Virus record (IMG/VR): IMGVR_UViG_3300033066_001054
Strand: one strand, 5' to 3'
DNA: 64,000 bases
From: a virus
Taxonomy: Duplodnaviria; Caudoviricetes
Part shown: one piece after another, positions 5,974-51,857 of the stretch
Position numbering within the stretch: position 1 is the stretch's first letter
Layout of the letters: every line of letters begins with the position of its first letter
Program-made: the position numbers and the translations under genes
The notes under the pieces: model-generated
Database searches by the model: none
What the model saw: only the letters and a program-made list of their open reading frames with translations
Told to the model about the DNA's origin: nothing

Positions 5974-6077
5974 ATGCTATACTCTGTGTGCAATCATTTC
6001 GCGGCCCCGGAAACCAGCTTCGCTGGTTAAAATATCGAGCGGCCCCGGAAATCGAGTCGCAGGAGTTAAAACAAATC

Positions 6078-6557
6078 ATGGGATTGGACATGTATCTCTC
6101 AAAGCGCACCTATGTCAAGAACTGGGACCATATGAAACCAGAAGAGCGACATCAGGTCAGCGTCACTCGCAACGGCACGGCAGTTGCCCATATCAAGCCT
6201 GAGCGCGTCAAGTATGTCATCGAAGAGGTGGCGTATTGGCGCAAGGCGAATGCCATTCACGATTGGTTCGTTCAGAACTGTCAGGGTGGAGTGGACGAGT
6301 GCCAGGAAACTTATGTAGAGCGTGAGAAGCTCGAAGAGTTGCTTGGTGTCATCACCGAGATTCTCGATGCACCTGAAGGTGAAGAGCGCGACAAGAAGGC
6401 AGGTGAGTTGCTCCCGCCTTGCGCCGGCTTCTTCTTCGGAAGCACTGAAGTTGACGACTGGTACTACCAGGACCTCGAGTTCACCAAGACCCGTCTTGCG
6501 GAAATCTTGGCAGAACCCGATGAGTCAGAAGGATTCATCTACCAGTCATCCTGGTAG
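6078..6557 (+). CDS. conserved phage hypothetical protein
   Basis: MGLDMYL...AYWRKANAIHDWF...GFFFGS...YQSSW pattern of a common phage family; ATG 38 nt after motif. Confidence 0.85.
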   Translation: MGLDMYLSKRTYVKNWDHMKPEERHQVSVTRNGTAVAHIKPERVKYVIEEVAYWRKANAIHDWFVQNCQGGVDECQETYVEREKLEELLGVITEILDAPEGEERDKKAGELLPPCAGFFFGSTEVDDWYYQDLEFTKTRLAEILAEPDESEGFIYQSSW

Positions 6558-6614
6558 GAAAATCGAGTCCGGGGTTGCGGCCCCGGACTCAAGAAATCGA
6601 AGGAAACAAACATC

Positions 6615-7232
6615 ATGGGAACACGTAACCTAACAATCGTTCAATCTGGCGGCGAATACAAAGTCGGCCAGTATTGCCAATGGGATGGATACCCTAGTGG
6701 ACAGGGCATGACCATTCTCGAGACACTGCGCAAGATGGACCCGGTATTCGATATTCCGGCATTTAAGCAGAAGGTCGACAACCTTAAGCAGCTCACCGAA
6801 GATGAAGTGCAAGCGTACTGGAAGAAGTGCGGCGCAGATGACTCTGGGTGGGTTGGCATGGATGTCAGCGACAAGTTCAAGAAGAAGTACGAGCACCTGC
6901 ATCGCGATTTTGGTGGCAAAATCATTGAAGCGATTGCCTCTGGCAAGGTGAAGGAAGTCTATGCCGATGTGGCGTTCGCTGGCGATTCGCTGTTCTGCGA
7001 ATGGGCGTATGTCATCGACTTGGACAAGAACACGTTCGAAGTGTACGGTGGTTTCAATAAAGGCCCACTGAAGCGTGGTGAGCGTTTCAACTTCCTGAAG
7101 CAACGTAAGACTAAGAAAGACCCAGACCCGTACAGTCCGGTGCGCCTGCTTGCGTCATGGCCACTCGATGCATTGCCAACTGAAGAAGAGTTCTTGGCAC
7201 TCGAGAAGGACGAAGAGGAAGCAGCGGTTTAG
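6615..7232 (+). CDS. conserved phage hypothetical protein
   Basis: MGTR...QYCQWDGYPSGQG...EWAYVIDLD pattern; ATG 37 nt after motif. Confidence 0.85.
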   Translation: MGTRNLTIVQSGGEYKVGQYCQWDGYPSGQGMTILETLRKMDPVFDIPAFKQKVDNLKQLTEDEVQAYWKKCGADDSGWVGMDVSDKFKKKYEHLHRDFGGKIIEAIASGKVKEVYADVAFAGDSLFCEWAYVIDLDKNTFEVYGGFNKGPLKRGERFNFLKQRKTKKDPDPYSPVRLLASWPLDALPTEEEFLALEKDEEEAAV

Positions 7233-7273
7233 CGGCCCCGGAACCCCGCTCGAGACCCTCGATTGTGAACATC

Positions 7274-7435
7274 ATGAAGCCAATTGAACCAACAAAGCTG
7301 ATTGTATCAGCCCACAAGCCTGTGACTCCGAAAGAGTTCAGACCTGTTGGTTGCTACTGTGACGTAGTGAAGCGACGCTGTGGTGTTTGCAATCGCGATG
7401 CCGGCGTCAAAGCCGCACTGAAGAGGCCGGTTTAA
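7274..7435 (+). CDS. small Cys-rich hypothetical protein (53 aa)
   Basis: fills the gap between two motif copies; CATCATG start context. Confidence 0.6.
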   Translation: MKPIEPTKLIVSAHKPVTPKEFRPVGCYCDVVKRRCGVCNRDAGVKAALKRPV

Positions 7436-7477
7436 CCACCGGCCCCGGAACCTAAAAAGAAGGAACAAGAAACAAAC

Positions 7478-8767
7478 ATGTCGACAATGACAGTAATTCA
7501 GAACCCGGTCAATGAGACCTATTTTCGACCATACGATTTCAACATGACCGATGGACGTCGGGCATATGTTGATGCGAATGGCACATTCCGCACCGCATTT
7601 GACGAGACTGCTGATGCTATCCATACTAAGGTGGCTCTGGATTGGCGTGCTCGATGCATTCCTGCGATGCCGCTGTTCGAGCGCGTTTACGACGCTGCTC
7701 AGCACAACATCGACGTCAAGACTCCCGAGAGCAACGTTCGAATCACGAATGACTTGACTTTGCCGGACGGCACCAAGTTCACTCATGGCGGACTGCGGTC
7801 TCTGATGTTCTTTGCCGGCATCCCCATCAAGATGCAGGATTGGCTTGCGATGTTCCAGTATCTTCCGGACCTGGCGCGTTTCTGCAACGAGTCTCTCGAC
7901 CGTCGTGAAATGGAGTGGGCTGACAAGGGTAAGCCGGCTCGGAACTTTATGGTTCGAATGCGCAAGGACGAGCATGGCAAGCACGTTGTGCGTGCTGTGT
8001 TGTCTGGTCAGTATGCGCGTTTCGACAATCATGAGGCGTGCAAGATGGTGCAGAACGCTTTGTCCACGATGGACGATGTGCTCGTCACTCATGGTTGGAC
8101 GAACCAGGATGCCATCATGCTGGACTTGCTCCTGCCTGACACGATGAAGGACGACCCTACCAACCAGTGGGGTGTTGGCTTCAGCTTCTCGAACAACGAG
8201 ATTGGCGCCGGAACCTTCAGCGTGGAACCGTATGTTTTCCGTTCGATTAACCGCACTGGTTACCGATGGGGTGGATTCTCCACCATCGTCAATGTTGACC
8301 AGCGACACATCGGCAACATCAACTACGGCAAACTGCAGGCTGACGTCAAGCGTGCAATCGACATCGCATTGACCGAAGGTCGTTCTATGTTGAATCTGTT
8401 GAGCATGGCTCAGTCGGTTCGCATCAATGACCCGGCATTGGTTATCTCTGGGTTGACCAAGGAAGCCAAGCTGACTCAATCGGATGTTGAGCTGGTGGCT
8501 CGAAAGTACGTCAAGGGTCAGAGTGACCCGCGAACGAACGGGACTGCATTCGGTGTCGTGGAAGCGATTGCCGTTGCGGCCTCAGAAGAGCATGGTGAGC
8601 GACGAACAGCACTTGAGGCTTCCGCCGGACGACTTGTTGCGCCTAAGCTGACTTCGAATGTCACTGACATCGAAAAGCACTGGGCGGACATTGAATCCAC
8701 GGCAGCGCGAAAGGGTGATAAGGATGTCATCCAGTCTGTTCGCGACATCTTGAGTGGTGCGAAGTGA
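7478..8767 (+). CDS. DUF932-like phage/plasmid protein
   Basis: VRAVLSGQYARFDN, GFSFSNNEIGAG, NGTAFGVVEAI resemble the DUF932 family. Confidence 0.7.
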   Translation: MSTMTVIQNPVNETYFRPYDFNMTDGRRAYVDANGTFRTAFDETADAIHTKVALDWRARCIPAMPLFERVYDAAQHNIDVKTPESNVRITNDLTLPDGTKFTHGGLRSLMFFAGIPIKMQDWLAMFQYLPDLARFCNESLDRREMEWADKGKPARNFMVRMRKDEHGKHVVRAVLSGQYARFDNHEACKMVQNALSTMDDVLVTHGWTNQDAIMLDLLLPDTMKDDPTNQWGVGFSFSNNEIGAGTFSVEPYVFRSINRTGYRWGGFSTIVNVDQRHIGNINYGKLQADVKRAIDIALTEGRSMLNLLSMAQSVRINDPALVISGLTKEAKLTQSDVELVARKYVKGQSDPRTNGTAFGVVEAIAVAASEEHGERRTALEASAGRLVAPKLTSNVTDIEKHWADIESTAARKGDKDVIQSVRDILSGAK

Positions 8768-9156
8768 GTGCCTCTCAAGCACTAGCTAATCTGGCAGTCG
8801 CCGCTAACGCGGCGGCTGCCGCCCTCAGCACGTCGACAATCGAGACCGAAGAGAAACCGGGACTTCGATTGCCAAACGGTGAGCGGGTATTGGATTATGC
8901 TCGTCGTCTGTACATCCACTCGATTTCCACATGGATTGATGATGGGGCACTCGAGGGAAAAGATATCGTTGACTTGGAAGTCGACGTGCATCGCAACGAC
9001 GAGCCATATTATCTCGTGCATTGGCCTGGGACCAAAAATTGTGCAATAATCTATCCGTCCAATGGCGGAGCAGGTAATTGCCCTTGGCGAATGCAGGAGA
9101 TGAGACAAGACCCGATGATTGAATCATTCTTACGAGCACGAAGTGCTTGGAACTAG
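8764..9156 (+). CDS. hypothetical protein
   Basis: GTGA overlap with upstream stop. Confidence 0.65.
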   Translation: MSASQALANLAVAANAAAAALSTSTIETEEKPGLRLPNGERVLDYARRLYIHSISTWIDDGALEGKDIVDLEVDVHRNDEPYYLVHWPGTKNCAIIYPSNGGAGNCPWRMQEMRQDPMIESFLRARSAWN

Positions 9157-9205
9157 TAGTGGCAAACCACGACGACCGAATCGAGTAGACAGGAGAAAAA
9201 CGAAC

Positions 9206-9715
9206 ATGGGACGCACTAAGATTATGCGCAACTACAAAGATGCTCGCGATTTCGTTCGCGGGCTTGGACTCAAAGATACGGCTGCTTGGCATGCATATGC
9301 GGCCAGCACTGAACGACCTAAGGACATCCCGGTGAATCCGTGGGTGGCTTACCGTGAGTACTTCGCCCAGACTGGAGAGAAGTTCTCGATTAACGACTTT
9401 ATCGGTGCCCGCGTCAAGCGTGGTCGACCGCGCAAGGACGAGAATCGAGCTCCCAAGCCTGTGAAGACCAAGGTGGTCACGACCGCACCGGTGCAGAAGA
9501 GTGCTTACGAGACGGCGAAGGATATCGTCCGTAGTCTTCACCTGAAGAGCCGCGCCGAATTCACCGCAATGTCGAAGGATGGCAAGCGACCTGAGGGTGT
9601 GCCAGCTCGCCCAGACCTCACCTTTGCAGGTGGTGAATGGGAAGGTTGGGCCGCATTCCTTGGCAATGCTCCGGCGGAGAACAAGACCGAGGAGCGGGAG
9701 TTCGTCACCGCTTAA
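9206..9715 (+). CDS. putative DNA-binding protein with two integrase-repeat-like units and an AT-hook
   Basis: YKDARDFVRGLGLK...RPKDIPVNP and YETAKDIVRSLHLKS...RPEGVPARP...WEGWAAFLG; KRGRPRK between them; SD AGGAG. Confidence 0.7.
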   Translation: MGRTKIMRNYKDARDFVRGLGLKDTAAWHAYAASTERPKDIPVNPWVAYREYFAQTGEKFSINDFIGARVKRGRPRKDENRAPKPVKTKVVTTAPVQKSAYETAKDIVRSLHLKSRAEFTAMSKDGKRPEGVPARPDLTFAGGEWEGWAAFLGNAPAENKTEEREFVTA

Positions 9716-9762
9716 CCTTTCAGCCCCGAGGCCTTTTGGTCTCGGGGCTATAGGTGTTTATC

Positions 9763-10263
9763 ATGACAATCAACAACGCTTTTAACCAAATTGTGGCAGT
9801 GGTGACCGGGCTCATCAATATCATCGACCGAGAGCTCGGCGCGATGGAGATGCTCGGCAACACCGAAGCCAAAGACGTATTCATCGAGGCAAAGAATTCA
9901 CTGCAGGCCTCGACCGGTGGCAGCGGCTTTGTCGGCGGAGTTAGGATGTTGAATGCAATCAACACGTGTTCCAAAGCATTCGAAGACCAAGCCATTGCAG
10001 AACCCGTTACGCCTGAATATTGGCTCCAGCATGCCTACGAATTCCGTCACGGTGCTGAGATGGCGGCCACTGATTTATTGCACGCTGTTGGCAGTGCTCC
10101 TCAATTCGAGCGTTCACTAGCTGGGTTAAGAATCAGTTGTGCCTATCTCGCGAAGCAATTGGGTCATCGCGACGCAGCTCTTGCGTTTGCGCAAGGCGCA
10201 CTGCGATTAGCGGCCCCGGAATCAGACATCGAGCTAGTGAAGAGGGTAATGCAACCGCATTAG
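9763..10263 (+). CDS. hypothetical protein
   Basis: ORF following hairpin 9722-9749; helical composition. Confidence 0.65.
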   Translation: MTINNAFNQIVAVVTGLINIIDRELGAMEMLGNTEAKDVFIEAKNSLQASTGGSGFVGGVRMLNAINTCSKAFEDQAIAEPVTPEYWLQHAYEFRHGAEMAATDLLHAVGSAPQFERSLAGLRISCAYLAKQLGHRDAALAFAQGALRLAAPESDIELVKRVMQPH

Positions 10264-10272
10264 GAGAAAGAA

Positions 10273-11370
10273 ATGCAAATCGCTGGATATCCGTTTGAAA
10301 ATCCGGTGCGACACGTACACCTGCACCTTTACAACCCGAGTGCAAACCACGACAAAGTCTATCACATCGTCTCTGAAAAGAACAGTGAGGGCAAGGTCCA
10401 GGTATCGGCAATGTGGGGTCGGCGTGGAAGTTCGCTCCGGCACATGGTGAAAACCAAAGATGGCAGCAAGCCCGGTTATGTTTCAGAGTGGTCTGCTCGC
10501 GCTGTGTTCGACAAGTTGCTTGCCGAACAAATTCGCGGCGGCTATGAGGTAAAGAACGATGAGTCGTTTACCCCTGGTGCTCCGGTCGCCATCAAAGAAA
10601 TCGAACTCGAACCTGAAACGAATGTGGTCGTCTGGAACCCGCGTTCATACGCTGAGAATCCGGTCCGCGCTACAGTCGTCAACCAGGACTTCAAGCTCAA
10701 TGGTTATGGTATCGTGCTCCTGCCGGAAGGCAAACGCATTCTGACTCTTGTTGAGAAGAACAAGAAGAAGTTCTTCGACCAGCATGGGGCTGAAATCACC
10801 ATCGACCAGTCACTGTTCAATGCGGTCTACGACCTTGAAGGTGACACGATTATCGACGGGGTTTGGGACGGTTCACACTACTTGGTGTTTGATATGCCTG
10901 GTGAGCGTGATTATGCAGAGCGCATCAAATCCTTGGCGGAGTACATCGACGGAACGGTCGATGACAGCGTGGTCCAGATGGCTGATATCTATTTGACTGC
11001 GGCCGAGACCCAGAGAGCTGTGTCTGATGCTCGAGAACTCGGAGCCCAGACGATTATCGGAATCCATATGTCCGGCGGAGAGCGACCCGGACAGAACGAC
11101 AAATCACGAGTGGTCCTAAGCCTGCGGCCCCGGGCTGTGCTCTGTGTGATGTCGGTCGATGGAGACCTTGCGACGCTGGGCGTCGATGACGGCCTCGGAG
11201 TCATCGAAGTGTGCCAGATGATGATTCAAGACGGCTTGAGTGTTGGCGACAACGTTCTTGTCGAATACGATTCGTGGTCTGGACACGGCACTAGCTTGAA
11301 GAAAGCTGAGTATGTCAAGAAGGCGAACCAGCCTGCTGACTGCTCAATCGACCAACTGCTCGCGGTGTAA
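10273..11370 (+). CDS. WGR-domain protein with degenerate ATP-dependent ligase fold
   Basis: HDKVY...AMWGRRG WGR domain; ligase-like LPEGKRI, IIDG, YLVFD, but the KxDG lysine is absent. Confidence 0.7.
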   Translation: MQIAGYPFENPVRHVHLHLYNPSANHDKVYHIVSEKNSEGKVQVSAMWGRRGSSLRHMVKTKDGSKPGYVSEWSARAVFDKLLAEQIRGGYEVKNDESFTPGAPVAIKEIELEPETNVVVWNPRSYAENPVRATVVNQDFKLNGYGIVLLPEGKRILTLVEKNKKKFFDQHGAEITIDQSLFNAVYDLEGDTIIDGVWDGSHYLVFDMPGERDYAERIKSLAEYIDGTVDDSVVQMADIYLTAAETQRAVSDARELGAQTIIGIHMSGGERPGQNDKSRVVLSLRPRAVLCVMSVDGDLATLGVDDGLGVIEVCQMMIQDGLSVGDNVLVEYDSWSGHGTSLKKAEYVKKANQPADCSIDQLLAV

Positions 11371-11397
11371 TATCCGCGAGCAGGGAGACTCGCAGAT

Positions 11398-12450
11398 ATG
11401 ACAAACAAAATCCAATACCTCAATGCTGACGGTGAGTATTTCGAAGTCGAAGGCAATGAGGCGCATTACATGACTGAAGACGAGTTGTACGACGCTTCAA
11501 ACTCCTTTCAGAACACGCTCGAAGACATCAAAATTGAGTTGCAAGACTTGGTGTATCTGTGGTTGGGTCATGCGAACTTAGTATGGTCAGCTCTGACACC
11601 TGAGGAATTGACCATCTTAAACACACGATGCGGCTACATCAAAAAGACCGTTCGGTACTTTCTGGAAGACGTATATCGAGTGCTTGGTACTCGTGGTTCA
11701 GACGATTATGGTATGACAGCGGCTGATTACGAAGATGAGATTTACTGCAATCACGAATTCGAGTTGAACTTGATGCAAGTGATTCAGAAGTCCTTCGAGT
11801 TCAGTTCTGGTAAGAGTCAGGGTATTGATGGCATCATCGACCTTGAGTGGTTTGAGCAGAAGTACGCCGGCACATGGATGTTGCGTATGTTAGAGCCAGT
11901 GACTGTCAAGCCCTGGGTCATGCCTGCTCCGCCTGCTTTGGTTGTGCCTGAGCGGCCGAGAGTCATTCTCACAGTGTTATCGGTGTCAGACAGTGCGCCG
12001 CGAATCTCTGTGGGCTTCGATGATGTTTTCTGCAACGAACCCATCGGCCGCGAAATCCTAGTCGATGACGAAGTGCGCGTAGGCGACCGTGTCATTATCA
12101 AGACCAGTGGATGGGAAGGCATAGGCCATGAGATGCAGAAGCCAGAGTACGACGGTTTGGCTGAACCAGACTGTCCTTGCTCTGAAATGACTGAGGTCAT
12201 GGAAGTGGAGTACAACTTCGACCTTGAGTTTGAACTTGAACAGCACGAAGCCAGATGGCGCAAGGCGTGGATTGACAAGCATTTCACGTTCAAGACCGAG
12301 CATGAAATCAGGACATCCGGCAAGACGACACACAACGGCTTTCTCAACCCAAGAAAGGCCAAGAAGGTCATTGTTTCTGATGGCCGGACAGAATACGGAG
12401 TTTCTGATGGCTGGACAGAATACGGAGAATACGACGAAGAATACAAATAA
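11398..12450 (+). CDS. hypothetical protein with ligase-like OB segment
   Basis: RPRVILTVLSV...VRVGDRVIIKTSGWEGIG resembles C-terminus of 10273; 27-bp tandem repeat 12373-12426. Confidence 0.65.
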   Translation: MTNKIQYLNADGEYFEVEGNEAHYMTEDELYDASNSFQNTLEDIKIELQDLVYLWLGHANLVWSALTPEELTILNTRCGYIKKTVRYFLEDVYRVLGTRGSDDYGMTAADYEDEIYCNHEFELNLMQVIQKSFEFSSGKSQGIDGIIDLEWFEQKYAGTWMLRMLEPVTVKPWVMPAPPALVVPERPRVILTVLSVSDSAPRISVGFDDVFCNEPIGREILVDDEVRVGDRVIIKTSGWEGIGHEMQKPEYDGLAEPDCPCSEMTEVMEVEYNFDLEFELEQHEARWRKAWIDKHFTFKTEHEIRTSGKTTHNGFLNPRKAKKVIVSDGRTEYGVSDGWTEYGEYDEEYK

Positions 12451-12490
12451 CCCCGGTCCCGGAACCGGGGGTTCTTCCTTGAAAACAATC

Positions 12491-13180
12491 ATGCGACAAA
12501 TCAATCCGGCTAGTGCCATTGAAGTAAGTCAGAATCGAAAGCTCGGTGCGGTCAGTGCAACCTATGCTTCGCAATCAACCTGCCCTGCAAGCTGTCCGCT
12601 TCGCAATGCTGGTTGTTATGCTGAGGCTGGACGCATGGGACTCCATACCCGACGATTGAATGATTCAGACATCACCAAGCCCGAAGCCGTAGCCCAAGTT
12701 GAGGCTGACGCCATCGACCGACTTACCGGTCGATTTCCTCTGCGCTTGCACGTCGTTGGCGATTCGCCAAACGCTGAATGTGCTCGAATTGTTTCCGACG
12801 CCGCAGGTCGACATACCGCAAAGCATGGTCAGCCCGTTTGGACTTACACCCATGCGTTGGATGTTCCACGAGAAGCGTGGGGTTCGGTGAGCGTGCTGCG
12901 CTCGTGTGAGCGTGTTGCTGACGTTGTTAAAGCTCTCGAAGAGGGTTTTGGCGCTGCGATGGTGGTTCCCGAGTTCAAGCAGGACACCGCATACGAGATT
13001 GCCGAAGGATTGACGGGTATTCCATGCCCTGAAATGACCGGCAAAGCTGATTCGTGTTTGAGTTGCGGTCTGTGCATGAAGGCAGACAAGTTGCGGGCTG
13101 GTCGCAAGGTCATCCTGTTTGCGGCTCATGGAAGCCGGACCAAAACGGTCCAGAATAATCTCCGGGTGCTGGCTTCATAG
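12491..13180 (+). CDS. Cys-rich Fe-S-like phage protein (gp88-like), paralog 1
   Basis: SQNRKLG...TCPASCPLRNAGCYA, LRLHVVGD, WTYTH, CP..CLSCGLC; ATG 37 nt after motif. Confidence 0.75.
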   Translation: MRQINPASAIEVSQNRKLGAVSATYASQSTCPASCPLRNAGCYAEAGRMGLHTRRLNDSDITKPEAVAQVEADAIDRLTGRFPLRLHVVGDSPNAECARIVSDAAGRHTAKHGQPVWTYTHALDVPREAWGSVSVLRSCERVADVVKALEEGFGAAMVVPEFKQDTAYEIAEGLTGIPCPEMTGKADSCLSCGLCMKADKLRAGRKVILFAAHGSRTKTVQNNLRVLAS

Positions 13181-13218
13181 CCGGCCCCGGAATCGAGTTT
13201 CAAAGGAATCAACACAAC

Positions 13219-43213: not shown

Positions 43214-43221
43214 CACAACAC

Positions 43222-43389: not shown

Positions 43390-43430
43390 CTGCGGCCCAG
43401 GAATCGGCCGTGTATCCGACTACCGACCAT

Positions 43431-43643: not shown

Positions 43644-44083
43644 GCAAACACAAATTCACCACCGAAAACCTTACGCCCACCCAGTGGGATACCACTGATG
43701 TCAAGGCTAAGTTCCTGAATGACTTGGCGAACTTCATGCGGTCTGGGTTCAAGCGCACCAAGTTCAGCAAGGCACTCTACAAGCGGTTGAGCATGACGTT
43801 TAGCCACATTGCCCACTACAACATCGAGGGGTTCTATGGCGAGTGGTTCGAGACGCCTGCCAAGCAACTGGCATGGGTGCAGAATGCCCTCCAGTATCCC
43901 TGTTTCGGTTCACCGGCGTACACTTATTGTGACGCCGAACGGCAGTTCAAGCAATGGTTGCAGTCCGACGAGGGTCAAGACCTTATCGCCGGAATCAAGC
44001 AACGGGCAAGGGACGCCGATATTGAGTTTGCACGTGCCATGAAGGAACGTGCTGAAGCGACGCTGGCATCATACGGCGTCTAA
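43640..44083 (+). CDS. conserved phage hypothetical protein
   Basis: GTG 37 nt after motif; FSKALYKRLS.TFSHIAHYN..GFY. Confidence 0.75.
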   Translation: MSKHKFTTENLTPTQWDTTDVKAKFLNDLANFMRSGFKRTKFSKALYKRLSMTFSHIAHYNIEGFYGEWFETPAKQLAWVQNALQYPCFGSPAYTYCDAERQFKQWLQSDEGQDLIAGIKQRARDADIEFARAMKERAEATLASYGV

Positions 44084-44124
44084 CCACCGGCCCCGGAGCT
44101 ACGGCTCCGGGGCTTTTTTGCTTC

Positions 44125-44415
44125 ATGACACACGGTTTCGATTGGACACACACACCGCACAAGGAAGACCTCGAGCGCGATAGCCAAACACCGGAAAGGT
44201 TCAGATTCTGGAAGAAGTTCCAGTACATCAGGACCGCAAAGAGATTCGGTGAAGTCGTACACGTCGAGACAACCACGGTGTACACTCGCACCGAGCACAT
44301 CTTCAATGAGATTATCAGGCACTGGAACGCGCTTGGTAACTCAGACCGACCACTAAATCCGGGCTTAACGTGGCATTATGCCGCGGTCCCGGAACCGACC
44401 GAAGGTTCAAACTAA
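44125..44415 (+). CDS. hypothetical protein
   Basis: ATG 37 nt after motif. Confidence 0.65.
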   Translation: MTHGFDWTHTPHKEDLERDSQTPERFRFWKKFQYIRTAKRFGEVVHVETTTVYTRTEHIFNEIIRHWNALGNSDRPLNPGLTWHYAAVPEPTEGSN

Positions 44416-44421
44416 AACATC

Positions 44422-44838
44422 ATGGGAAGCATCAAACTTTCACCAAAACACGGCGTAAACCCAAGCATCCCCACCTGCTTTTGGTGCGGAGAAGCCATGA
44501 ACATGCTTGTGCTGTTTGGCAGGTTGCCGAACGACAGGGAAGCGGGTATGCACTGCGGTGCTATCTCGTATGAACCATGCGACAAGTGCAAGGGACATTG
44601 GGCGCAGGGTATCACGCTTATTGAGGCTGGTATGTCTCCGCAGTCGGAGAATCAGCCGGAGATGCAGAAAGGCGTCTATCCTACGGGTCGATTCCTGGTA
44701 TTGAAACCCGATGCAGTAGAGCAAATCTTTCCACCAGATGCGGCCGCCGATGTGCTGAAGCATCGAATGTGCTTCATGGACTTCGAGACCTTCGACAAGT
44801 TCGTACCGGCCCCGGAACCAGAACCAGCGCCGGGATAA
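44422..44838 (+). CDS. zinc-binding phage protein
   Basis: LSPKHGVNP..CFWCG...YEPCDKC. Confidence 0.75.
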   Translation: MGSIKLSPKHGVNPSIPTCFWCGEAMNMLVLFGRLPNDREAGMHCGAISYEPCDKCKGHWAQGITLIEAGMSPQSENQPEMQKGVYPTGRFLVLKPDAVEQIFPPDAAADVLKHRMCFMDFETFDKFVPAPEPEPAPG

Positions 44839-44843
44839 TCAAC

Positions 44844-45032
44844 ATGCCTTACAAACGCAAAACCCGCGACGAGTTCGATATCGAGGGGAACTATGGTTAT
44901 GGTGACGGCTGGGAAGTCGTCACCTGCGAAGAGAACCGTAAGGATGCCAGTGCTGCCCTGAAGGAGCATCGCGAAAACGAACCTGGTGTACCGTTCAGAA
45001 TCAGGAAACACCGAGTACCAATCGAGGCATAA
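44844..45032 (+). CDS. hypothetical protein
   Basis: ATG 37 nt after motif. Confidence 0.7.
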   Translation: MPYKRKTRDEFDIEGNYGYGDGWEVVTCEENRKDASAALKEHRENEPGVPFRIRKHRVPIEA

Positions 45033-45033
45033 T

Positions 45034-45324
45034 ATGGCAAAAGCGAAACCTCAGTTCCACGCCGGTCCTGACTGGCAAACTGGTCAAAAGTACTTCAGCA
45101 TCGAAGATGCAATGAAGGGCGCAGAGACCAACGTACAATGGACTGTATGGCGCAACACGCCAGGAACCTGGGCAATCGTCTACAGTCAAGGCGACAAGCT
45201 CGAACTCACTGGTGGCGGATACGGTCGGGGTAAGCCACGAGGCACCCGCAACGAGTGGGATACAGCCTATGTGTACGAAGACCTTCGATGGGCTTCGGTT
45301 TCTGAACTCTGCAAAATGGTGTAA
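45034..45324 (+). CDS. hypothetical protein
   Basis: coupled to upstream stop. Confidence 0.65.
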   Translation: MAKAKPQFHAGPDWQTGQKYFSIEDAMKGAETNVQWTVWRNTPGTWAIVYSQGDKLELTGGGYGRGKPRGTRNEWDTAYVYEDLRWASVSELCKMV

Positions 45325-45364
45325 GGCGGCCCCGGAGCCGCCTTCGCCAACAAATCAAAACATC

Positions 45365-45688
45365 ATGGACAAGGCACTTTACACTTTGCACAAAGCTCGC
45401 CCCGGCGTTGGTGGCTTCCACTGCTCCTGCTGCAATCCTGCATTCGGTAACTTCAAGGGGCCGGATTCTCGCCGTCATCGCCAAGCAGCCAAGCGTGCCC
45501 TGCGACGCGTCGAGCGCCAACGCGCACGCAATGCTGGTGCAGAAGAGTTGCATCAGCAGTTCATCGAAGCCATCCATGAACACAACTATTGGATGATTGA
45601 TTTTGGTATGGAAGACCAGTGCATCGAGTACAATCGGCTTCAAGGTGTGATTCGCAAGCCGGCCCCGGAACTAAGCATGGCGTGGTGA
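45365..45688 (+). CDS. basic Cys-containing hypothetical protein
   Basis: ATG 38 nt after motif; GGFHCSCC. Confidence 0.65.
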   Translation: MDKALYTLHKARPGVGGFHCSCCNPAFGNFKGPDSRRHRQAAKRALRRVERQRARNAGAEELHQQFIEAIHEHNYWMIDFGMEDQCIEYNRLQGVIRKPAPELSMAW

Positions 45689-45696
45689 AATGAATC

Positions 45697-46005
45697 ATGC
45701 GAAGCGATTACATCGAATTCGACACTACTCCGGTTGATGAGCCTTGTGTGGGTATCAATGGCGATATGACCGAGGCAAAAGCCGAAGCCTATCGCATGAA
45801 GGAACTGCTGGAGAAGCGGTTTCCCGATGTTAATGGCTACTTCACAATCAAGAGCATGCCACACGACTTTGGTTCGTACTTGGAGATGCGGTTCTACTAC
45901 TACGACGACGAAGATGGCATCAAGGAGATGCAACACGTCGAAGCCAACTACCCTCAAACTTGGCAGGACACCGAACCCGTGTTGCTGTATCCTAAGAAGG
46001 ACTGA
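45697..46005 (+). CDS. conserved phage hypothetical protein
   Basis: TPVDEPC...PHDFGSYLE. Confidence 0.75.
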   Translation: MRSDYIEFDTTPVDEPCVGINGDMTEAKAEAYRMKELLEKRFPDVNGYFTIKSMPHDFGSYLEMRFYYYDDEDGIKEMQHVEANYPQTWQDTEPVLLYPKKD

Positions 46006-46047
46006 CCCACCGGCCCCGGAGCTACGGCTCCGGGGCTTTTTTACTTC

Positions 46048-46287
46048 ATGGCTATCATCCCTGAATCACTCAAGTTCACCCAAGAAGAACAAGCCAAACT
46101 CGAGGCCATCCGCGTGAAGGCCAGGGCACGACATGAGCGCGAACGCAAGGCTGCCCTGAAGCGCGGCTGCAAGGACTATCCACTGTTGCCATATGAATGC
46201 TCATGGGCATATGAAGAGCAGTTCAGGCGAGCCGTCAGGAATCCGGCCCCGGAACCAAGACGACGATTTGGTTTTCTATCATGCTGA
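46048..46287 (+). CDS. hypothetical protein
   Basis: ATG 37 nt after motif. Confidence 0.6.
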   Translation: MAIIPESLKFTQEEQAKLEAIRVKARARHERERKAALKRGCKDYPLLPYECSWAYEEQFRRAVRNPAPEPRRRFGFLSC

Positions 46288-46601
46288 AACTTCCAAGCAA
46301 CATCCCGCCACTCTATGCCACCGAAAAGGTGGATACTGACGACAAAGTGATGCACGCTCGTTTGTTTGCATTAAATAGCGCAGCAACCTGGCTTGTTGCT
46401 GAGTATGACCCCGAAGACAGGGTCATCTATGGCTATTGTGACCTATACGGTCAAGGTCGAGAAGGTGGTGCCGAATGGGGATGTGTCTCCATCGCAGAGC
46501 TGGAGTCGCTCAAGTTCATGGGCATTCCCCGTGTCGAGGTTGACGCGCACTTCACGCCGAAGCCGTTTAAGGAGTGCATCTCGCCTGACGGTCGCATCTA
46601 A
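46281..46601 (+). CDS. DUF2958-like protein
   Basis: PPLYATE...ATWLVAEYDP...YGYCDL...EWGCVSIAELE...VEVDAHFTP. Confidence 0.8.
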   Translation: MLKLPSNIPPLYATEKVDTDDKVMHARLFALNSAATWLVAEYDPEDRVIYGYCDLYGQGREGGAEWGCVSIAELESLKFMGIPRVEVDAHFTPKPFKECISPDGRI

Positions 46602-46646
46602 ACCGACCCGGTCCCGGAACCCCGGAAACGGGGTTCCCACCCATCA

Positions 46647-46706
46647 ATGGCGAACCACAAACGAAAGAAATGCAAGCGGTCGACACATGCCATTACGGGC
46701 AACTAA
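46647..46706 (+). CDS. putative 19-aa basic micropeptide
   Basis: ATG 38 nt after motif; stop 3 nt before next (variant) motif. Confidence 0.5.
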   Translation: MANHKRKKCKRSTHAITGN

Positions 46707-46747
46707 GCCCGGCCCCAGAACCTCAATTCAGGTATAACCACAACATC

Positions 46748-46906
46748 ATGAGCAAGAAGCGAAAACAAGCATCGCCCAAGCCATCGTACACTCCGGTGCC
46801 GTTCACACGGGCTCACTCAAAGCCACATAGGCTGGAGGAGAACTCCCGTGCCAGACGCAAGCGCGAAGAGCGCGATGCCAAGAACGGCAAGTGGGGGCAA
46901 GATTGA
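46748..46906 (+). CDS. small basic protein
   Basis: ATG 38 nt after variant motif at 46710. Confidence 0.6.
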   Translation: MSKKRKQASPKPSYTPVPFTRAHSKPHRLEENSRARRKREERDAKNGKWGQD

Positions 46907-47274
46907 TAACTGAGTTCAAGGGCGAACGCGGTAGCTTCTCAGTGTGTCACAAGGGAGAGGTCTGGACAGTCCAGGCTATGGTGTTTGGTGTTGAGCCGCC
47001 GGATGAATTCAACATCAAACACAAGGAACCAATTGACTGGCGATTGGATGAGAAAAATCACTCACCTACCGGTCTCGAATGGGGATATGGTGGTTCCGGA
47101 CCAAGTCAATTGGCGTGGTGTATCCTACGAGAATGTGGACTGACTCAACCACAAGCCGCTAAGCTGTATATGCAGTTCAAGGCAGATGTGATTGCTAACC
47201 TGCCACGTGATGGATTCACCTTAACTGTCCAACAGGTCATGGATTGGGTCAAGAAGAACGGCCCCGGAACCTAA
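46891..47274 (+). CDS. DUF6166-like protein
   Basis: NHSPTGLEWGYGGSGPSQLA...LYMQFK..VIA. Confidence 0.75.
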   Translation: MGARLITEFKGERGSFSVCHKGEVWTVQAMVFGVEPPDEFNIKHKEPIDWRLDEKNHSPTGLEWGYGGSGPSQLAWCILRECGLTQPQAAKLYMQFKADVIANLPRDGFTLTVQQVMDWVKKNGPGT

Positions 47275-47295
47275 TCCGGGTAAGGACTTATCAAC

Positions 47296-47685
47296 ATGTG
47301 GAAAGCAAATCAAGAGCGACCTGGAAGCTGGTACATCACGCACAACGACCGAGTTCAACCCTTCGGCGCAATCTTTTTCAATGAGCGCGGCGACATCGGT
47401 GAACTGGTCAAGCGTGCTGTTACACAACTCAACGCCGGCAAGCGCGTCATCCAGGGTGTCCGCGACCTGTACGAAGTCGTCATGACACCTTCTGGTGTGG
47501 CTGATATCAACTTGGTGCGCACTCCACTTTGCAAGAAGTGTAATGTGCCCATGAAAGAGGGTGAAGCACTCCAGAACCAACTCGTTGGTGGTGACTTTCG
47601 CGGTGCCACACTTAGCCACACCGGACCGGCGCAAATGGTCAAGGTATGGAAGTGCCCTGACTGTGGGCACTCGTTCACAAAGTAG
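47296..47685 (+). CDS. zinc-ribbon-containing protein
   Basis: CKKC...KCPDCGHS. Confidence 0.7.
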   Translation: MWKANQERPGSWYITHNDRVQPFGAIFFNERGDIGELVKRAVTQLNAGKRVIQGVRDLYEVVMTPSGVADINLVRTPLCKKCNVPMKEGEALQNQLVGGDFRGATLSHTGPAQMVKVWKCPDCGHSFTK

Positions 47686-47723
47686 CGGTCCCGGAACCGC
47701 GCAAACCACAAAAGGAGTAAGAC

Positions 47724-48014
47724 ATGAGCAGACACACTACTCAAGCAGGCAACCTCGAAGTCGTTCTCGGTGTCGACCGACCACTGAACCATGTGTTCGC
47801 GTCCATCTTCGAAGATGGCGAAGAGGTCGAAGGGTTCGACCCGTTCTCGTGGTTCCAACCGACACCAGCAGGTGTTGATGAGGCGATTTCCGCCGTGGAA
47901 ACCTTCGTTGGCAACAACTGGAAGGTTCCTGGCGAGCTGCGCCAAGCCTTGCTTGATGACCTGACAGCGATGTTATTCGGTGCGTCCATCAACCACGCTA
48001 AGGTACACAGGTAA
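47724..48014 (+). CDS. hypothetical protein
   Basis: ATG 38 nt after motif. Confidence 0.7.
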   Translation: MSRHTTQAGNLEVVLGVDRPLNHVFASIFEDGEEVEGFDPFSWFQPTPAGVDEAISAVETFVGNNWKVPGELRQALLDDLTAMLFGASINHAKVHR

Positions 48015-48059
48015 CCCTGAACCGGCCCCGGAGCTTCGGCTCCGGGGCTTTTTTGCTTC

Positions 48060-48269
48060 ATGAACAAGATTCAACGCATCGCAGCAACACTCGGCATTCC
48101 TGCGAACGAAATCACAAAAGCCGAGCGAAAAGCCATCAGCAAGACCAAATCAGCCGCAGAAGTGTGCCGAATACTTGCAATTGAAGTCGACGGTAATGTA
48201 CAATATGTGCAGGCCGCCATGAAGCGACACAAGAAGTCGAAAGCGCAGGTGTATGCGTATGCGGCGTAA
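48060..48269 (+). CDS. hypothetical protein
   Basis: ATG 37 nt after motif. Confidence 0.7.
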   Translation: MNKIQRIAATLGIPANEITKAERKAISKTKSAAEVCRILAIEVDGNVQYVQAAMKRHKKSKAQVYAYAA

Positions 48270-48281
48270 TGGAGTAAAACT

Positions 48282-48413
48282 ATGAGTCTACAAGGTTCAG
48301 GATGCATGTTCATCATCGGGATGCTGTTCTGTGCGATGTTCTGGGGATTCTATGGTGCTTTTTGGTGGACGGTTGCAAGCGTCATCGTCACCATATTGAG
48401 CAACGACGACTAA
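48282..48413 (+). CDS. small membrane protein (43 aa)
   Basis: SD GGAG; hydrophobic; stop abuts motif. Confidence 0.55.
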   Translation: MSLQGSGCMFIIGMLFCAMFWGFYGAFWWTVASVIVTILSNDD

Positions 48414-48453
48414 GCCGGTCCCGGAACTCAAACAACCAACAAATCACAAAAGC

Positions 48454-48828
48454 ATGTGGAAAACATCAAAGATGGAATCCACCTTCGAGCATAGCCTTGA
48501 AGGTGCAAAGCAGGCTGGGTTCAACGGTTGCATCAAGTATGCCGACCAAGACACCGCAGTCGAAGCCAAAAAGGTACTTCGACCGCACTTGGATGAAGCA
48601 TACGACCTTGTCGCTTACCAGGGTGATGTCACAGCCGAGGTTGACATGGAGTACATGAGCGAACCAAGACTTCGGGTTTCTGAGTTCCTCAAGGCGATTG
48701 TTGCCACTAACCCAGTATCAGCCGAGTTTGAAGCTGAGGATGAGGACGGTGAACAGTACCAGATGAACCTGGTGGATGGTCAATGGGTGCTCATGCAACG
48801 CTCTGACAACTTCCAAGAGGTAGCGTAA
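48454..48828 (+). CDS. hypothetical protein
   Basis: ATG 38 nt after motif. Confidence 0.7.
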   Translation: MWKTSKMESTFEHSLEGAKQAGFNGCIKYADQDTAVEAKKVLRPHLDEAYDLVAYQGDVTAEVDMEYMSEPRLRVSEFLKAIVATNPVSAEFEAEDEDGEQYQMNLVDGQWVLMQRSDNFQEVA

Positions 48829-48871
48829 AACTCGCGGTCCCGGAACTTCGGTTCCGGGACTTTTTTCATTT

Positions 48872-49045
48872 ATGCCGAAAGCAAAGCCGGTCAAGACGCT
48901 CAAAGAGCTGGGCGAAATCATCACTAAGAACTTCTCGCAGAAAATGATTCGCGAGGGGTACAATATCGACCCGTCTGACTTGGAAGAGGTCGGCCGCCAA
49001 GCATTGGCATGGGGCGATATTCGACGCGACGGTACACTCAACTAG
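48872..49045 (+). CDS. hypothetical protein (57 aa)
   Basis: ATG 37 nt after motif; not in ORF track. Confidence 0.65.
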   Translation: MPKAKPVKTLKELGEIITKNFSQKMIREGYNIDPSDLEEVGRQALAWGDIRRDGTLN

Positions 49046-49054
49046 GAGGTTGAT

Positions 49055-49267
49055 ATGCAAACCACAGTAAGGCACTTGCTACCGGGCGATGTCCTGGTAG
49101 GTTCGGGGTTCACGGTGACCCGTGCGCCATATGTTGCGGTCAATACACCGCGTGGCAAGATGTGCGTTGAAGGGCACTACAAGAACAAACCGGTAGGCAC
49201 TCGCATTTGGGGAGCATCAACCACCGTCACAATCAAGCGCGAAGGCGCGGTCCCGGAACCCGGATAG
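49055..49267 (+). CDS. hypothetical protein
   Basis: strong SD AGGAGGT. Confidence 0.7.
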   Translation: MQTTVRHLLPGDVLVGSGFTVTRAPYVAVNTPRGKMCVEGHYKNKPVGTRIWGASTTVTIKREGAVPEPG

Positions 49268-49285
49268 TCCGGGTTCCATACAATC

Positions 49286-49654
49286 ATGGAAACATGGCTG
49301 AAGGACGACGATGCCAAGGCAATCTGCCGGCATCGAGCGAAGTCAAACGAGTACATTCGACGCCGGTTGTCCTCCGGCGCGAAAGTACCGCGAGCGGAAT
49401 GGATGCAATGGGCGCACGAGTACGATGCAGTCCATACAATCCTGAAGGTACTCGCTGGTATCTGCGACGGCGCAAAGTCGCATGATGGATGCGGATTCAA
49501 CAAACTGGACTCAGGCAGGGGCAAGCGACTGGCTTATCAGTCAGAACTTACCAACGATGAGTTCTGGACTGGAGTCCGAATAGTCCGCAAGTACCACAAG
49601 CAAATCGACCCCGCACTCATGGCGTGGGTTCCCCGGTCCCGGAACCCGCAATAG
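49286..49654 (+). CDS. hypothetical protein with CDGA..DG.GFN.LD domain
   Basis: motif resembles a small domain seen appended to phage helicases. Confidence 0.7.
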   Translation: METWLKDDDAKAICRHRAKSNEYIRRRLSSGAKVPRAEWMQWAHEYDAVHTILKVLAGICDGAKSHDGCGFNKLDSGRGKRLAYQSELTNDEFWTGVRIVRKYHKQIDPALMAWVPRSRNPQ

Positions 49655-49670
49655 CGGGTTCCCACCTAAC

Positions 49671-49991
49671 ATGAGCGAAACACTCGAAAACTCCGCCGAC
49701 CGCTTCTTCAAGTGGTTGGATTCAATCGCTGAATCGACGCTCGGGAAAATCGGTAAGTCGAAAGGATTCCATATCTGGCACTCAGGTGGTGGTTGCCATC
49801 ATTTCCGAAAGGACAATCCGAACGGATGCTATGTCCTGGTGTGCCACGAATCCGAGATTCCCGAAAACGACCTTGGAACCTGGATGGTCGGCACCTACGA
49901 TGCCGAAGGTATGGAAATCGGAGTCGAGGACTTCGAGGGAAAACTCGAAGATGCGCTGGATATGGCGGACAAACTTCTAGCCGAAGTCTAG
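49671..49991 (+). CDS. hypothetical protein
   Basis: ATG 37 nt after motif; WHSGGGC. Confidence 0.7.
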   Translation: MSETLENSADRFFKWLDSIAESTLGKIGKSKGFHIWHSGGGCHHFRKDNPNGCYVLVCHESEIPENDLGTWMVGTYDAEGMEIGVEDFEGKLEDALDMADKLLAEV

Positions 49992-50029
49992 CCGGTCCCG
50001 GAACCCCGGAAACGGGGTTCCCACCTATC

Positions 50030-50233
50030 ATGGACATCAAGAAGATTAAACAGTCCATCGGAGAACAGTACGCTTATGTACTGCGCTCCGATATCTACAC
50101 CGATGAGGTGCGCAAGCAAATCATCGCTGCAATGGATGACATGGTGGAACTCACTTCCAAAATCACAGGGTACACCGTGACCGAACTCAAGGAACTCGTA
50201 CCCGATGGACGCCCGGTCCCGGAACCCGCCTAG
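50030..50233 (+). CDS. hypothetical protein
   Basis: ATG 37 nt after motif. Confidence 0.65.
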   Translation: MDIKKIKQSIGEQYAYVLRSDIYTDEVRKQIIAAMDDMVELTSKITGYTVTELKELVPDGRPVPEPA

Positions 50234-50274
50234 TGCGGGTTCCATAAAGCATCACCACGGAGGGTGACAGCATC

Positions 50275-50565
50275 ATGGAAGATAACAAGACAGGTTTACA
50301 ACGTGCCCTAGAGAACGCTGCTATCAAGGCAGGCTGGGGCATTCTCGTCACCGCGATGGCACTGCCTACTGCATGGCAATGGGCAACCACACTTGACCCT
50401 GATGGCATCTTAGGTGTCACGATTGCACTTTGCATCCTCGGATGCGCTGCGCTATCGCCCCTAGTGCTAGGATGCGGGTTTGCATCCGATGACCTGCGAA
50501 AAGCGCGTCGTATATGGCGTGCTTCACGACCACAACTGCGGTCCCGGAATCAGCGGAACGCCTAG
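50275..50565 (+). CDS. two-helix membrane protein
   Basis: SD GGAGG; two hydrophobic segments. Confidence 0.65.
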   Translation: MEDNKTGLQRALENAAIKAGWGILVTAMALPTAWQWATTLDPDGILGVTIALCILGCAALSPLVLGCGFASDDLRKARRIWRASRPQLRSRNQRNA

Positions 50566-50610
50566 ACCATATCAATGTCCCAAGCAATGGGACGGAGGAA
50601 AATCACACTC

Positions 50611-50805
50611 ATGTTCACCGTAGACAAGTTCGACCCCAAGACCAACAAGCTCACCGTCACGTTCGACCTCAGCGCACCCCGCAAGCCGGAACCCGGCAAG
50701 GTCATGTGGATGATGGGTACGACCGGCGGATTCAAGGAAGTTCCCGGCGTCAACATCGACGGGCACGCTCTCAAGTTGTCCGCCAATATCGGCTTCAAGA
50801 AGTAG
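50611..50805 (+). CDS. hypothetical protein
   Basis: SD GGAGG after GTCCC hairpin leader. Confidence 0.7.
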   Translation: MFTVDKFDPKTNKLTVTFDLSAPRKPEPGKVMWMMGTTGGFKEVPGVNIDGHALKLSANIGFKK

Positions 50806-50877
50806 CCACAATCGCCGGTCCCGGAACCCCGCCTAGCGGGGTTCCTCTACATTGTCCCAAGGGACAAAGGAGATACG

Positions 50878-51105
50878 ATGCCTAAGACAAGCACAGTCAT
50901 CGACAACGCCGTTGCGGAATACACGCAACGCCAGACTCGCCAAGCCGTCAAGCGACTGACGGCGCAAGCCGAACGCCTCAATGGTGACCGGCTTTGCCGA
51001 CTTCCCAAAGCCGATGAACGGCTTGTCAAGACCTTGCGCGACCTTAGCGCAATCGACCGCGAAGGTGCCAAGCATCTCGCCAAGTCTATGGGGATGACGT
51101 TCTAA
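50878..51105 (+). CDS. hypothetical protein
   Basis: SD AAGGAG after GTCCC hairpin leader. Confidence 0.7.
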   Translation: MPKTSTVIDNAVAEYTQRQTRQAVKRLTAQAERLNGDRLCRLPKADERLVKTLRDLSAIDREGAKHLAKSMGMTF

Positions 51106-51173
51106 ATCGCCGGTCCCGGAACCCCGCCTAGCGGGGTTCCATTGTAATGTCCCAAGGGACAACAGGAGGAACC

Positions 51174-51383
51174 ATGAAGGTTACTGATATCCGCCTCACC
51201 GCTTCGGCAGAGGGCACGCTCGTCACTCCGGTAAACGCGCTCGGTTCGCGGGTTGCCAAGACCCAACTGCCAGGTTGCGGTGACTTTACCGCCATTGGCG
51301 TGCCCGTGACCGTCAAGATGCCGGTCGATATTGTCAAGTCGATTCTGCGCGGTCGAGGTGCGCGATTCAGCGCGACCGCATAA
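51174..51383 (+). CDS. hypothetical protein
   Basis: SD AGGAGG after GTCCC hairpin leader. Confidence 0.7.
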   Translation: MKVTDIRLTASAEGTLVTPVNALGSRVAKTQLPGCGDFTAIGVPVTVKMPVDIVKSILRGRGARFSATA

Positions 51384-51423
51384 CAGCGGTCCCGGAACCC
51401 CGGAAACGGGGTTCCCACCTATC

Positions 51424-51528
51424 ATGAAAGCAATCTTCGCGGTGGCACTGGTGTACGGACTGGTGTTCCACACCACACTGACCATCGTCGTCATCATCGC
51501 ACTTGCGGTGCTTAAGGTAGTTAAGTAA
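51424..51528 (+). CDS. small membrane peptide (34 aa)
   Basis: ATG 37 nt after motif; fully hydrophobic. Confidence 0.6.
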   Translation: MKAIFAVALVYGLVFHTTLTIVVIIALAVLKVVK

Positions 51529-51857
51529 CCGCCGGTCCCGGAACTCAACACACGACCAAACGCCTAAGCATGGCAAGAGAGGTAGTCACATGAAGCGCTG
51601 AGCATTCAAGCTAATCTGGAACCGACAAGCCGGGGTGGTGCCCCGGCTCCAAATCCAAGGCGGCCCCGGACGCCTGGCAAGCGCCCGGTGACTAGCTCCC
51701 GGCTCGCAAGCCGGACCGCCGAGGTCGACCTTGGTGCCAATCGCTGTTTCCCTAAGTGGAGGGGGTGGGGTCAAGATTTTAGGTACCATATTGGAAATAG
51801 TAACGTCCGTATACGGGATGTTATTTTTCTTCTGTGAGTCATATTAGTGAGCGCCAT

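Follow-up and report, generated by a model that had tools for sequence, protein, structure and literature searches.

A GC-rich element repeated at a fixed distance from start codons suggests a phage-specific promoter class in the probable terminal repeat of a megaphage

The stretch analysed here, referred to as the window, is 64,000 nucleotides (nt) of a virus of the Caudoviricetes (IMG/VR record IMGVR_UViG_3300033066_001054), and it contains an array of about 99 called genes, about 65 of which are headed by a GC-rich motif, CGGYCCCGGA. The array is composed of small unknown genes together with a WGR protein, an RNA ligase, a MoxR ATPase with its vWA partner and a GHKL ATPase. In all relatives read, the genes and features at this locus have the same order: an NrdG-like gene, a gene for a divergent sigma factor, a gene for a signal-peptide protein, a host-type promoter and then the array (table 1). 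The motif mostly lies within a few bases of the preceding stop codon, and it had first been noticed in a sequence-only reading of the window, whose claims are considered below together with the results that bear on them.

A regex scan of both strands of the window finds 68 exact copies of CGGYCCCGGA, the first at 6002 and the last at 51661, all of them on the plus strand and none on the minus strand, where a third-order Markov model of the array region predicts 0.17 by chance. The array first reported is thus real, but the copy number given for it (about 73) is too high for the exact form; with variants included, the total is about 74. Confinement to the plus strand between 6.0 and 51.7 kb was also correctly described, although it holds for exact copies only, as near-copies are present on the minus strand to the left of the array (2306 and 2741). 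Counted from the first C, a start codon is found at +37 or +38 in 56 of the 68 copies: 35 copies have ATG at +37 and 19 have it at +38, while GTG adds the copies at 43603 and 15060, the latter of which probably has its real start at +49. The background rate is 3% per two-position window (p~1e-72), and the distance distribution is therefore far from flat. The fixed spacing claimed by the sequence-only reading stands, with its estimate of about 58 starts among about 73 copies replaced by the exact count. All eight of its example coordinates are correct, and its four one-mismatch variants (39350, 39739, 43393 and 46710) do preserve the spacing, as do two further ones (35002 and 35856). The core of the element was rightly identified as a 10-mer, but the full element covers 14 nt, S-CGGYCCCGGA-RYY, with C or G in the position before the core in 64 of the 68 copies and the following R, Y and Y in 65, 62 and 67 of them. 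A pyrimidine precedes 54 of the 56 motif-linked starts, as had been remarked, compared with 56% for the other genes of the relative G001.

Table 1. Location of the features discussed in the text (positions within the window).
Feature	Position	Strand	Basis
Predicted promoter array, 68 exact and ~6 variant copies, element at about -38..-25	6001..51673	+	motif scan
Terminator-type cassette: 11-bp hairpin (motif as 5' arm), U-tract, ATG at +37, no Shine-Dalgarno	44087..44127	+	sequence
Read-through-type cassette: A-rich spacer, AGGA word, A at -3, ATG at +37, without hairpin	13181..13221	+	sequence
Leadered copy: C-G step at +37/38, then GGAG, ATG at +53	16104..16160	+	sequence
Divergent sigma70-family factor (regions 2, 3-like and 4), candidate reader	1613..2512	+	sequence/family match
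Antisense near-copy inside the sigma gene	2297..2306	-	exact in G001, L075 and L076
Second antisense near-copy, in the gene after sigma	2732..2741	-	exact in G001
Third left-pointing near-copy, in the radical-SAM (NrdG-like) gene	1073..1082	-	one mismatch in G001, two in the window
Probable long direct terminal repeat, about 47 kb	4963..51800		depth (right edge, dropping from about 88-91x to 45x at or beyond 51,777), identity blocks (left edge)
Host sigma70 promoter, near-perfect, heading the block and pointing inward	5280..5308	+	sequence; similar in all relatives read
Conserved ~650-nt non-coding RNA ending in a terminator	5314..5972	+	conservation
Match to an extended -10 promoter of the host type, directed into the first array genes	5975..5983	+	sequence

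The window belongs to a clade of megaphages of 480-530 kb. One relative, G001, is complete (478,840 bp, about 80% identical) and was retrieved with the hairpin form of the motif; it serves as the stand-in genome for whole-phage tests and carries 80 plus-strand and two minus-strand copies, all within 317-369 kb. A second and more distant relative, G002, which is collinear with G001, is the first 531 kb (1-531,300) of contig JAFDWS010000002.1 (G002:C5) of an Armatimonadetes metagenome-assembled genome (MAG). The motif is a real clade-wide regulatory signal.

What does this signal do? We regard it as very probable, from the sequence patterns that follow, that the motif marks a promoter. The leadered copy at 16104 (table 1) indicates that a pyrimidine-purine step, rather than the start codon itself, is the end point of the fixed distance. 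Among the copies of three phages that have no ATG or GTG at 37/38, such a step is found at 36/37 or 37/38 in 38 of 54, against a background of 44% (p=6e-5). G002 alone has the step in 18 of 25 such copies (p=0.008), in 17 of them exactly at 37/38, and its start codons there are 39-53 nt away. Outside the array, the word TANNNT peaks at -12 from the ATG (27 of 323 and 28 of 351 genes), which suggests that leaderless mRNAs from sigma70-type promoters are normal elsewhere in these phages. The same word is missing at -12 from all motif-led genes of three phages (0/58, 0/63 and 0/15, the first being the window set), and sigma70 consensus sites between 32 and 51.9 kb number 8, with 12.6 expected. 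The lack of a TANNNT -10 word, and with it the distinction from sigma70 promoters and T4 MotA middle promoters, had been correctly seen. The stretch from -12 to -1 is G-poor and has no common word; at -12..-6 it contains at most 0.6 bit per position in the non-terminator copies, its composition being a T-run in the terminator copies and A-rich in the rest.

The spacers between the motif and the start codon are of different types. In 15 of the 56 start-linked copies the motif is, as read from sequence, the 5' arm of a hairpin with a U-tract; these terminator-type hairpins are of the 11-bp type, and the U-tract finishes a few bases 5' of the ATG. A further 17 copies have a hairpin without a U-tract, and 24 have no hairpin and an A-rich spacer. 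The earlier description of the spacer as unconserved is therefore valid for the missing -10 consensus, but not for this architecture. Words resembling a Shine-Dalgarno sequence, which had been noted as often absent, are indeed present in only 11 of the 56 copies, and they are found in none of the 15 terminator-type copies compared with 10 of the 24 hairpin-free ones (p=0.006). Likewise, A at -3 is found in 3 of 15 and 22 of 24, respectively (p=8e-6), and G001 repeats both contrasts. A gene that is situated behind a terminator and has no Shine-Dalgarno sequence is best explained by a leaderless start of its own, and the motif cannot act on the mRNA of that gene. Transcription start at +37/38 with a mostly leaderless mRNA, as put forward in the sequence-only reading, is thus well supported by indirect tests, namely the pyrimidine-purine steps, the terminator-type copies, the conservation of the spacer length and the leaderless promoters predicted elsewhere. 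Contigs of the wastewater metatranscriptome runs X1-X3 include the array as well as its flank; as they reveal neither ends nor strand nor level, they form no part of this evidence.

The same spacers bear on the idea that the motif acts at the level of RNA, as a signal for processing, antitermination or enhanced translation on a long polycistronic transcript from the host promoter at 5.3-6.0 kb, with a phage protein cutting or reading the site at a ruler distance. The strict strand bias, the 32 of 56 copies in or beside hairpins and the structured RNA at the head of the block agree with such a role. However, terminator-type motifs are buried in the stem of the upstream RNA, with the U-tract before the next gene, 24 copies are free of hairpins, and a sequence-independent ruler of 37/38 nt to a pyrimidine-purine step fits a polymerase bound to DNA better than a flexible RNA, which makes an RNA-level signal quite improbable.

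Even less probable is that gene shuffling spread the motif chiefly as a repeat for recombination or as a terminator family multiplied by duplication, with its spacing inherited as a by-product. On the one hand, 21 of the 31 alignment blocks between the window and G001 begin within -17..+38 of a motif, 27 of the 99 array genes are without a match in G001, and all copies in one distant relative (L086) are hairpins. On the other hand, different copies have unrelated spacers of preserved length, the flanks drift around an invariant motif, and the spacing outlives changes of the motif sequence. Orthologous spacers (36 pairs) are only about 60% identical, their length is always 37 or 38 nt, and the two lengths have been switched between orthologues in 13 of the pairs. 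Block starts at motifs are expected of any gene-level indel, because most gene boundaries carry a motif, and gene shuffling at these sites is better seen as a side effect. Two related readings were rejected: integron attC sites, as 24 of the 56 copies are hairpin-free (no integrase search was made), and joints between hairpin copies as proof of excision, which are repeat artefacts.

If the motif is a promoter, its reader has to be found. In the Armatimonadetes MAG, the motif with its spacing has 13 matches. Every one of them falls within the phage array, and the bacterial (probable host) DNA, about 3.3 Mb, contains none; this supports a phage-made reader, in agreement with the sequence-only reading, and a host housekeeping or ECF promoter of exactly this form is rejected. 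A phage RNA polymerase, which had been listed among the possible readers, is unlikely. The complete G001 has genes for three sigma factors, and a multisubunit RNA polymerase was not detected in it, as searches for the beta and beta-prime subunits gave no match with controls that worked; its large proteins contain no catalytic motif of the DFDGD type, and a search for a T7-type enzyme was uninformative, as no positive control responded.

The sigma factor beside the array is the best candidate. Its gene is located 3.5 kb upstream of the array in all relatives examined, and this synteny holds down to 24% sigma identity. The protein evolves faster than its neighbour (28% against 53% identity in L083). 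Before the gene stands an extended -10-like match (about 1591-1599), and the database product begins 12 codons downstream of the start at 1613. Region 2.3 has neither the W-W pair nor the F427-type residue, and an invariant proline occupies what we take to be the F427-type position; such an alteration would be in line with the absence of a -10 word. Given that the motif is a promoter, we judge the adjacent sigma rather likely to be its reader, and when the doubt about the promoter is included, the case for it is evenly balanced. That a phage factor of the sigma70 family reads a GC-rich upstream element alone, and opens the DNA without specific capture of a -10 sequence, is proposed tentatively and with slightly less than even confidence; the same grade applies to its corollary, that the start would be set by distance together with the pyrimidine-purine step.

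Other readers of the same promoter can be envisaged. The host primary-sigma holoenzyme might be redirected to the same start site by a phage activator or co-activator, in an appropriation like that by MotA/AsiA, the activator being a product of the first array genes or injected with the DNA. The array is probably a terminal repeat, and repeat genes are immediate-early in PA5oct and SPO1; a CCGG-NN-CCGG repeat within the element is a possible activator site, and a host-type extended -10 match leads into the first genes of the array, and nearly all relatives have two of these genes. Yet activated primary-sigma promoters retain a -10, as T4 middle promoters do, and here there is none; the array genes that were tested showed no recognisable DNA-binding family, and the CCGG symmetry is gone in the relatives. 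We consider redirection of the host sigma unlikely. Still less likely is reading by another phage sigma of the G001 type or by an RNA polymerase too divergent to be detected. Three sigma genes are present, Pfam can miss divergent phage RNA polymerases, and the T7-type search had no working control, but both other sigma genes of G001 (189 residues, at about 173 kb; sigmaH-like, 222 residues, at about 432 kb) are far from the array, and the large proteins are without the DFDGD-type motif. Further upstream words occur in G001 outside 319-370 kb, namely CATAAT(A) at -11 from the ATG and TGTATAA near -15 or -40; they are candidate targets of the two other sigma factors, which would thus have sites of their own.

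The motif changes between lineages at unchanged spacing. G002 has CGGYCCCNGA (sigma identity 44%), L011 and L079 have CGGCCTNGGA (58-60%), L083 and L084 have GGACCCTCAG (28%), and L086 has a hairpin-bound YGWGCCCCGC (24%). L083 and L084 each contain six plus-strand copies and one minus-strand copy of GGACCCTCAG, with an ATG in the matching register in four; a scan of viral contigs for this variant gave single chance matches only. Searches with the sigma and with a DUF932-like protein found no viral contigs besides G001, and the lone genome match was marginal. Minus-strand near-copies of the motif are located over the genes to the left of the array (table 1). The one inside the sigma gene has at most one mismatch in 7 of 12 sigma orthologues, a 1.7-kb stretch of G001 spanning the sigma and NrdG-like genes contains three of that genome's nine minus-strand near-copies, and at the edge of the array in L083/L084 a copy of their own variant points left. 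The antisense copies in G001 and L083/L084 fit a possible antisense feedback on the sigma gene.

A number of observations weigh against the adjacent sigma as the reader of a leaderless promoter. None of the three G001 sigmas has the W-W pair, so that this feature does not distinguish the adjacent one, and two further sigma genes exist in that genome. The C/T difference at motif position 6 is matched by only two of the 193 columns in the sigma alignment, 266 and 286, which both belong to region 4. This co-variation would favour the adjacent sigma but is suggestive only, as it rests on six lineages with two or three changes and control partitions yield 1-17 columns; moreover, residue 286 matches an ECF position that is structural and not base-reading. 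Adjacency and co-divergence may stem from shared ancestry. The antisense copy in the sigma gene is lost in 5 of the 12 orthologues, and it overlaps Ser-Gly-Ala codons. If the array enters the cell first, the sigma, which is encoded outside the repeat, would have to be expressed earlier, unless the virion brings it along. Pyrimidine-purine steps also reached 72% at one non-ATG control offset in G002. Both the promoter and its reader are predictions from sequence.

The array is probably a direct terminal repeat of about 47 kb, of which the right edge alone is measured. In DNA run X7, contigs over 36.0-51.7 kb have a depth of 84-95 and a 15-kb contig from 51,777 has a depth of 45.1, so that the ratio of 36.0-51.7 kb to 51.8-56.0 kb is 1.94-2.02 (contig-level, one run), although the same ratio would be seen if two strains of equal abundance shared the block. 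GC content drops from 53% to 45% at the same edge. The left edge is inferred from identity blocks with two relatives, which start at 4963/4964. The segment 14121-17991 of L007 is 98.5% identical to window 4963-8838, with 77-89% on both flanks, and appears to be a recent recombination that starts at this edge. The leader RNA at the head of the block lies under the host promoter and is conserved above nearby genes; it has no Rfam match, and a hammerhead reading was rejected because it did not fit. In L086 (13100-14050), one module of this RNA is repeated at least five times, about 175-200 nt apart, and G002 and L083/L084 have dissimilar-looking RNAs in its position.

The host is probably a bacterium of the Armatimonadota, because of the MAG relative and of the phage GroEL, whose nearest named cellular relatives are Fimbriimonadaceae. 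In JAFDWS010000002.1 the join between phage and bacterial DNA is inside groEL, and the contig may either be a chimera of the assembly or contain a prophage of very large size; the 531-kb phage part has more than 50 tRNA genes. A giant eukaryotic virus, hinted at by a tRNA-Ile(TAT) and a Kozak-like context, is rejected by the sigma factors, the intrinsic terminators and the GroEL affinity. The tRNA in question is an ARAGORN prediction at 4257-4326 adjoining a tRNA-Gln, and Rfam supports the tRNA-Gln alone. The sequence GATC is absent from the window (64 kb), G001 (479 kb) and G002:C5 1-529,000, whereas the bacterial part has about 60 per 10 kb, which points to a possible GATC restriction system of the host.

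Some neighbouring and array genes are recorded here for completeness. The signal-peptide protein (window 3540-4004) has 154 residues, a C-terminus resembling that of an outer-membrane protein and a constant length; it stands beside the array in nearly all relatives and gave no family match in PHROGs, the only collection searched. Pairs of MoxR-type ATPase and vWA protein are located at 20279-23446, within the array, and at 60890-63386, outside it. Two cysteine-rich paralogues (12491-13180 and 34698-35381) are motif-led and among the best-conserved array genes, with 96% and 92% identity to G001 and 75% and 59% to G002. A GIY-YIG-like array gene, recognised by eye (14333-14929, plus strand), is absent from G001, and an HNH endonuclease (PHROGs; 51865-52932, minus strand) lies just beyond the right edge.

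Taken together, the observations can be accommodated by a promoter class specific to the phage, in which the motif would be the sole sequence-specific element. The phage sigma (1613-2512) on the host core RNA polymerase would bind the 14-nt element at about -38..-25; the polymerase would open the G-poor, A/T-rich DNA without a conserved -10 hexamer, and transcription would begin on the purine of the pyrimidine-purine step, at a distance of 37 or 38 nt from the first C. As this purine is usually the A of the start codon, a leaderless mRNA would result. About a quarter of the copies would double as the 5' arm of a terminator for the upstream transcript, creating self-contained gene units, and the other copies would permit read-through and retain translation signals for it. 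As to the order of events, we infer that the host sigma would produce the phage sigma and the first terminal-repeat genes, that the phage sigma would then fire about 70 promoters in each of the two repeat copies, carrying host-takeover genes, and that the antisense copies would finally damp the sigma gene. To this explanation as a whole, with the start sites, reader and timing as we infer them, we give an even chance. The sigma gene, the embedded terminators, the probable terminal repeat and the likeness to PeSL cassettes discussed below were all missing from the sequence-only reading.

Promoters read by phage sigma factors and promoter-terminator cassettes are already known, and a promoter consisting of an upstream element only would be the new part. 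In the textbook account, a promoter opens when sigma region 2 captures the -10 strand in a sequence-specific manner. If the proposal is true, the class would be a mirror-image counterpart of the T4 gp55 promoters and of extended -10 promoters, and it would drive about 70 mostly leaderless units in a terminal repeat of ~47 kb. As a natural pair of sigma and promoter, with ~150 sequenced examples that have no -10 word, it could be used to ask how far -10 capture is dispensable. Each of the four or five variants of the motif has a sigma of its own next to it; together they could map a recognition code, and the pairs are possible orthogonal expression parts in which the downstream 25 bases are free. 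In addition, the analysis outlines the proposed early programme of an undescribed megaphage clade, which probably infects Armatimonadota, and its probable ~47-kb terminal repeat.

A literature search found nothing relevant on the motif, on such a promoter class or on the megaphage clade. Promoters of SPO1 gp28 have a -35 and a -10 consensus, and those of T4 gp55 a -10 only. The array differs from both in having an upstream element only, with no conserved -10 word, and we know of no phage-sigma promoter class without such a word. It differs likewise from the T4 middle promoter, since no sigma70 -10 stands behind the upstream box. ECF and group 3 sigma promoters have a GGAAC -35 at about -34; the end of the motif, GGA-R-Y-Y, is similar, and the recognition helix of the sigma resembles the ECF pattern, but the equivalent of GGAAC is at -30/-31 and a conserved -10 word is missing. 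Other private motifs are known from the leaderless promoters of phiYS40, the 21-bp promoters of phiC31, the mycobacteriophage start-associated sequences (SAS/ESAS) and the family A repeats of EhV-86, and to our knowledge none of these systems, nor that of Thermus phage P23-45, has a lone element at -38..-25. P23-45 has a private early motif and a phage RNA polymerase (PMC4124052). With all of these the array shares a phage-specific repeated motif before an early-gene cluster; unlike it, they are near the start or ribosome site, are host-sigma promoters or depend on a phage RNA polymerase.

A phage sigma that creates a private promoter class on the host core is known from SPO1 gp28, T4 gp55 and the sigma-encoding group 2 jumbo phages (PMC7824862), and the present clade resembles the gp28 and gp55 phages in encoding a sigma with no RNA polymerase detected (here, in G001). 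As for the repeat itself, the early repeat of PA5oct comprises 39,080 bp and 105 genes (PMC7318152), SPO1's host-takeover module consists of early genes in a long terminal repeat (PMC6873191), and SPO1 early genes are transcribed via host sigmaA (PMC13401047). The common feature is a long terminal repeat (a probable one here) with about 100 small genes, in a jumbo phage that has no RNA polymerase of its own; however, PA5oct promoters are of the host type, TTGAC/TATAATA, whereas here the promoter would be non-host and the repeat about 47 kb.

The closest parallel in layout is provided by the PeSL cassettes, which are promoter-terminator units of the T4-like phages RB49/phi1, PST and nt-1 (PMC2839356, PMC4122927). 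Both are repeated intergenic cassettes that extend from stop to start among small unknown genes, with a stem-loop terminator between the upstream element and the start (here in 15 of 56 copies, with 17 more hairpins). Gain and loss of genes at the cassettes may be a further likeness, the block starts at motifs being such as any gene-level indel would give. PeSLs, however, are made of consensus sigma70 -35 and -10 sequences and a terminal Shine-Dalgarno (PMC2839356, PMC4122927), whereas the present cassettes have a GC-rich element, no -10, few Shine-Dalgarno words and a mostly leaderless start. The statement of the sequence-only reading that this is not a described system is thus appropriate for the promoter sequence but not for the layout of the cassette: to judge from sequence, the system is not PeSL, but it would work like a PeSL cassette.

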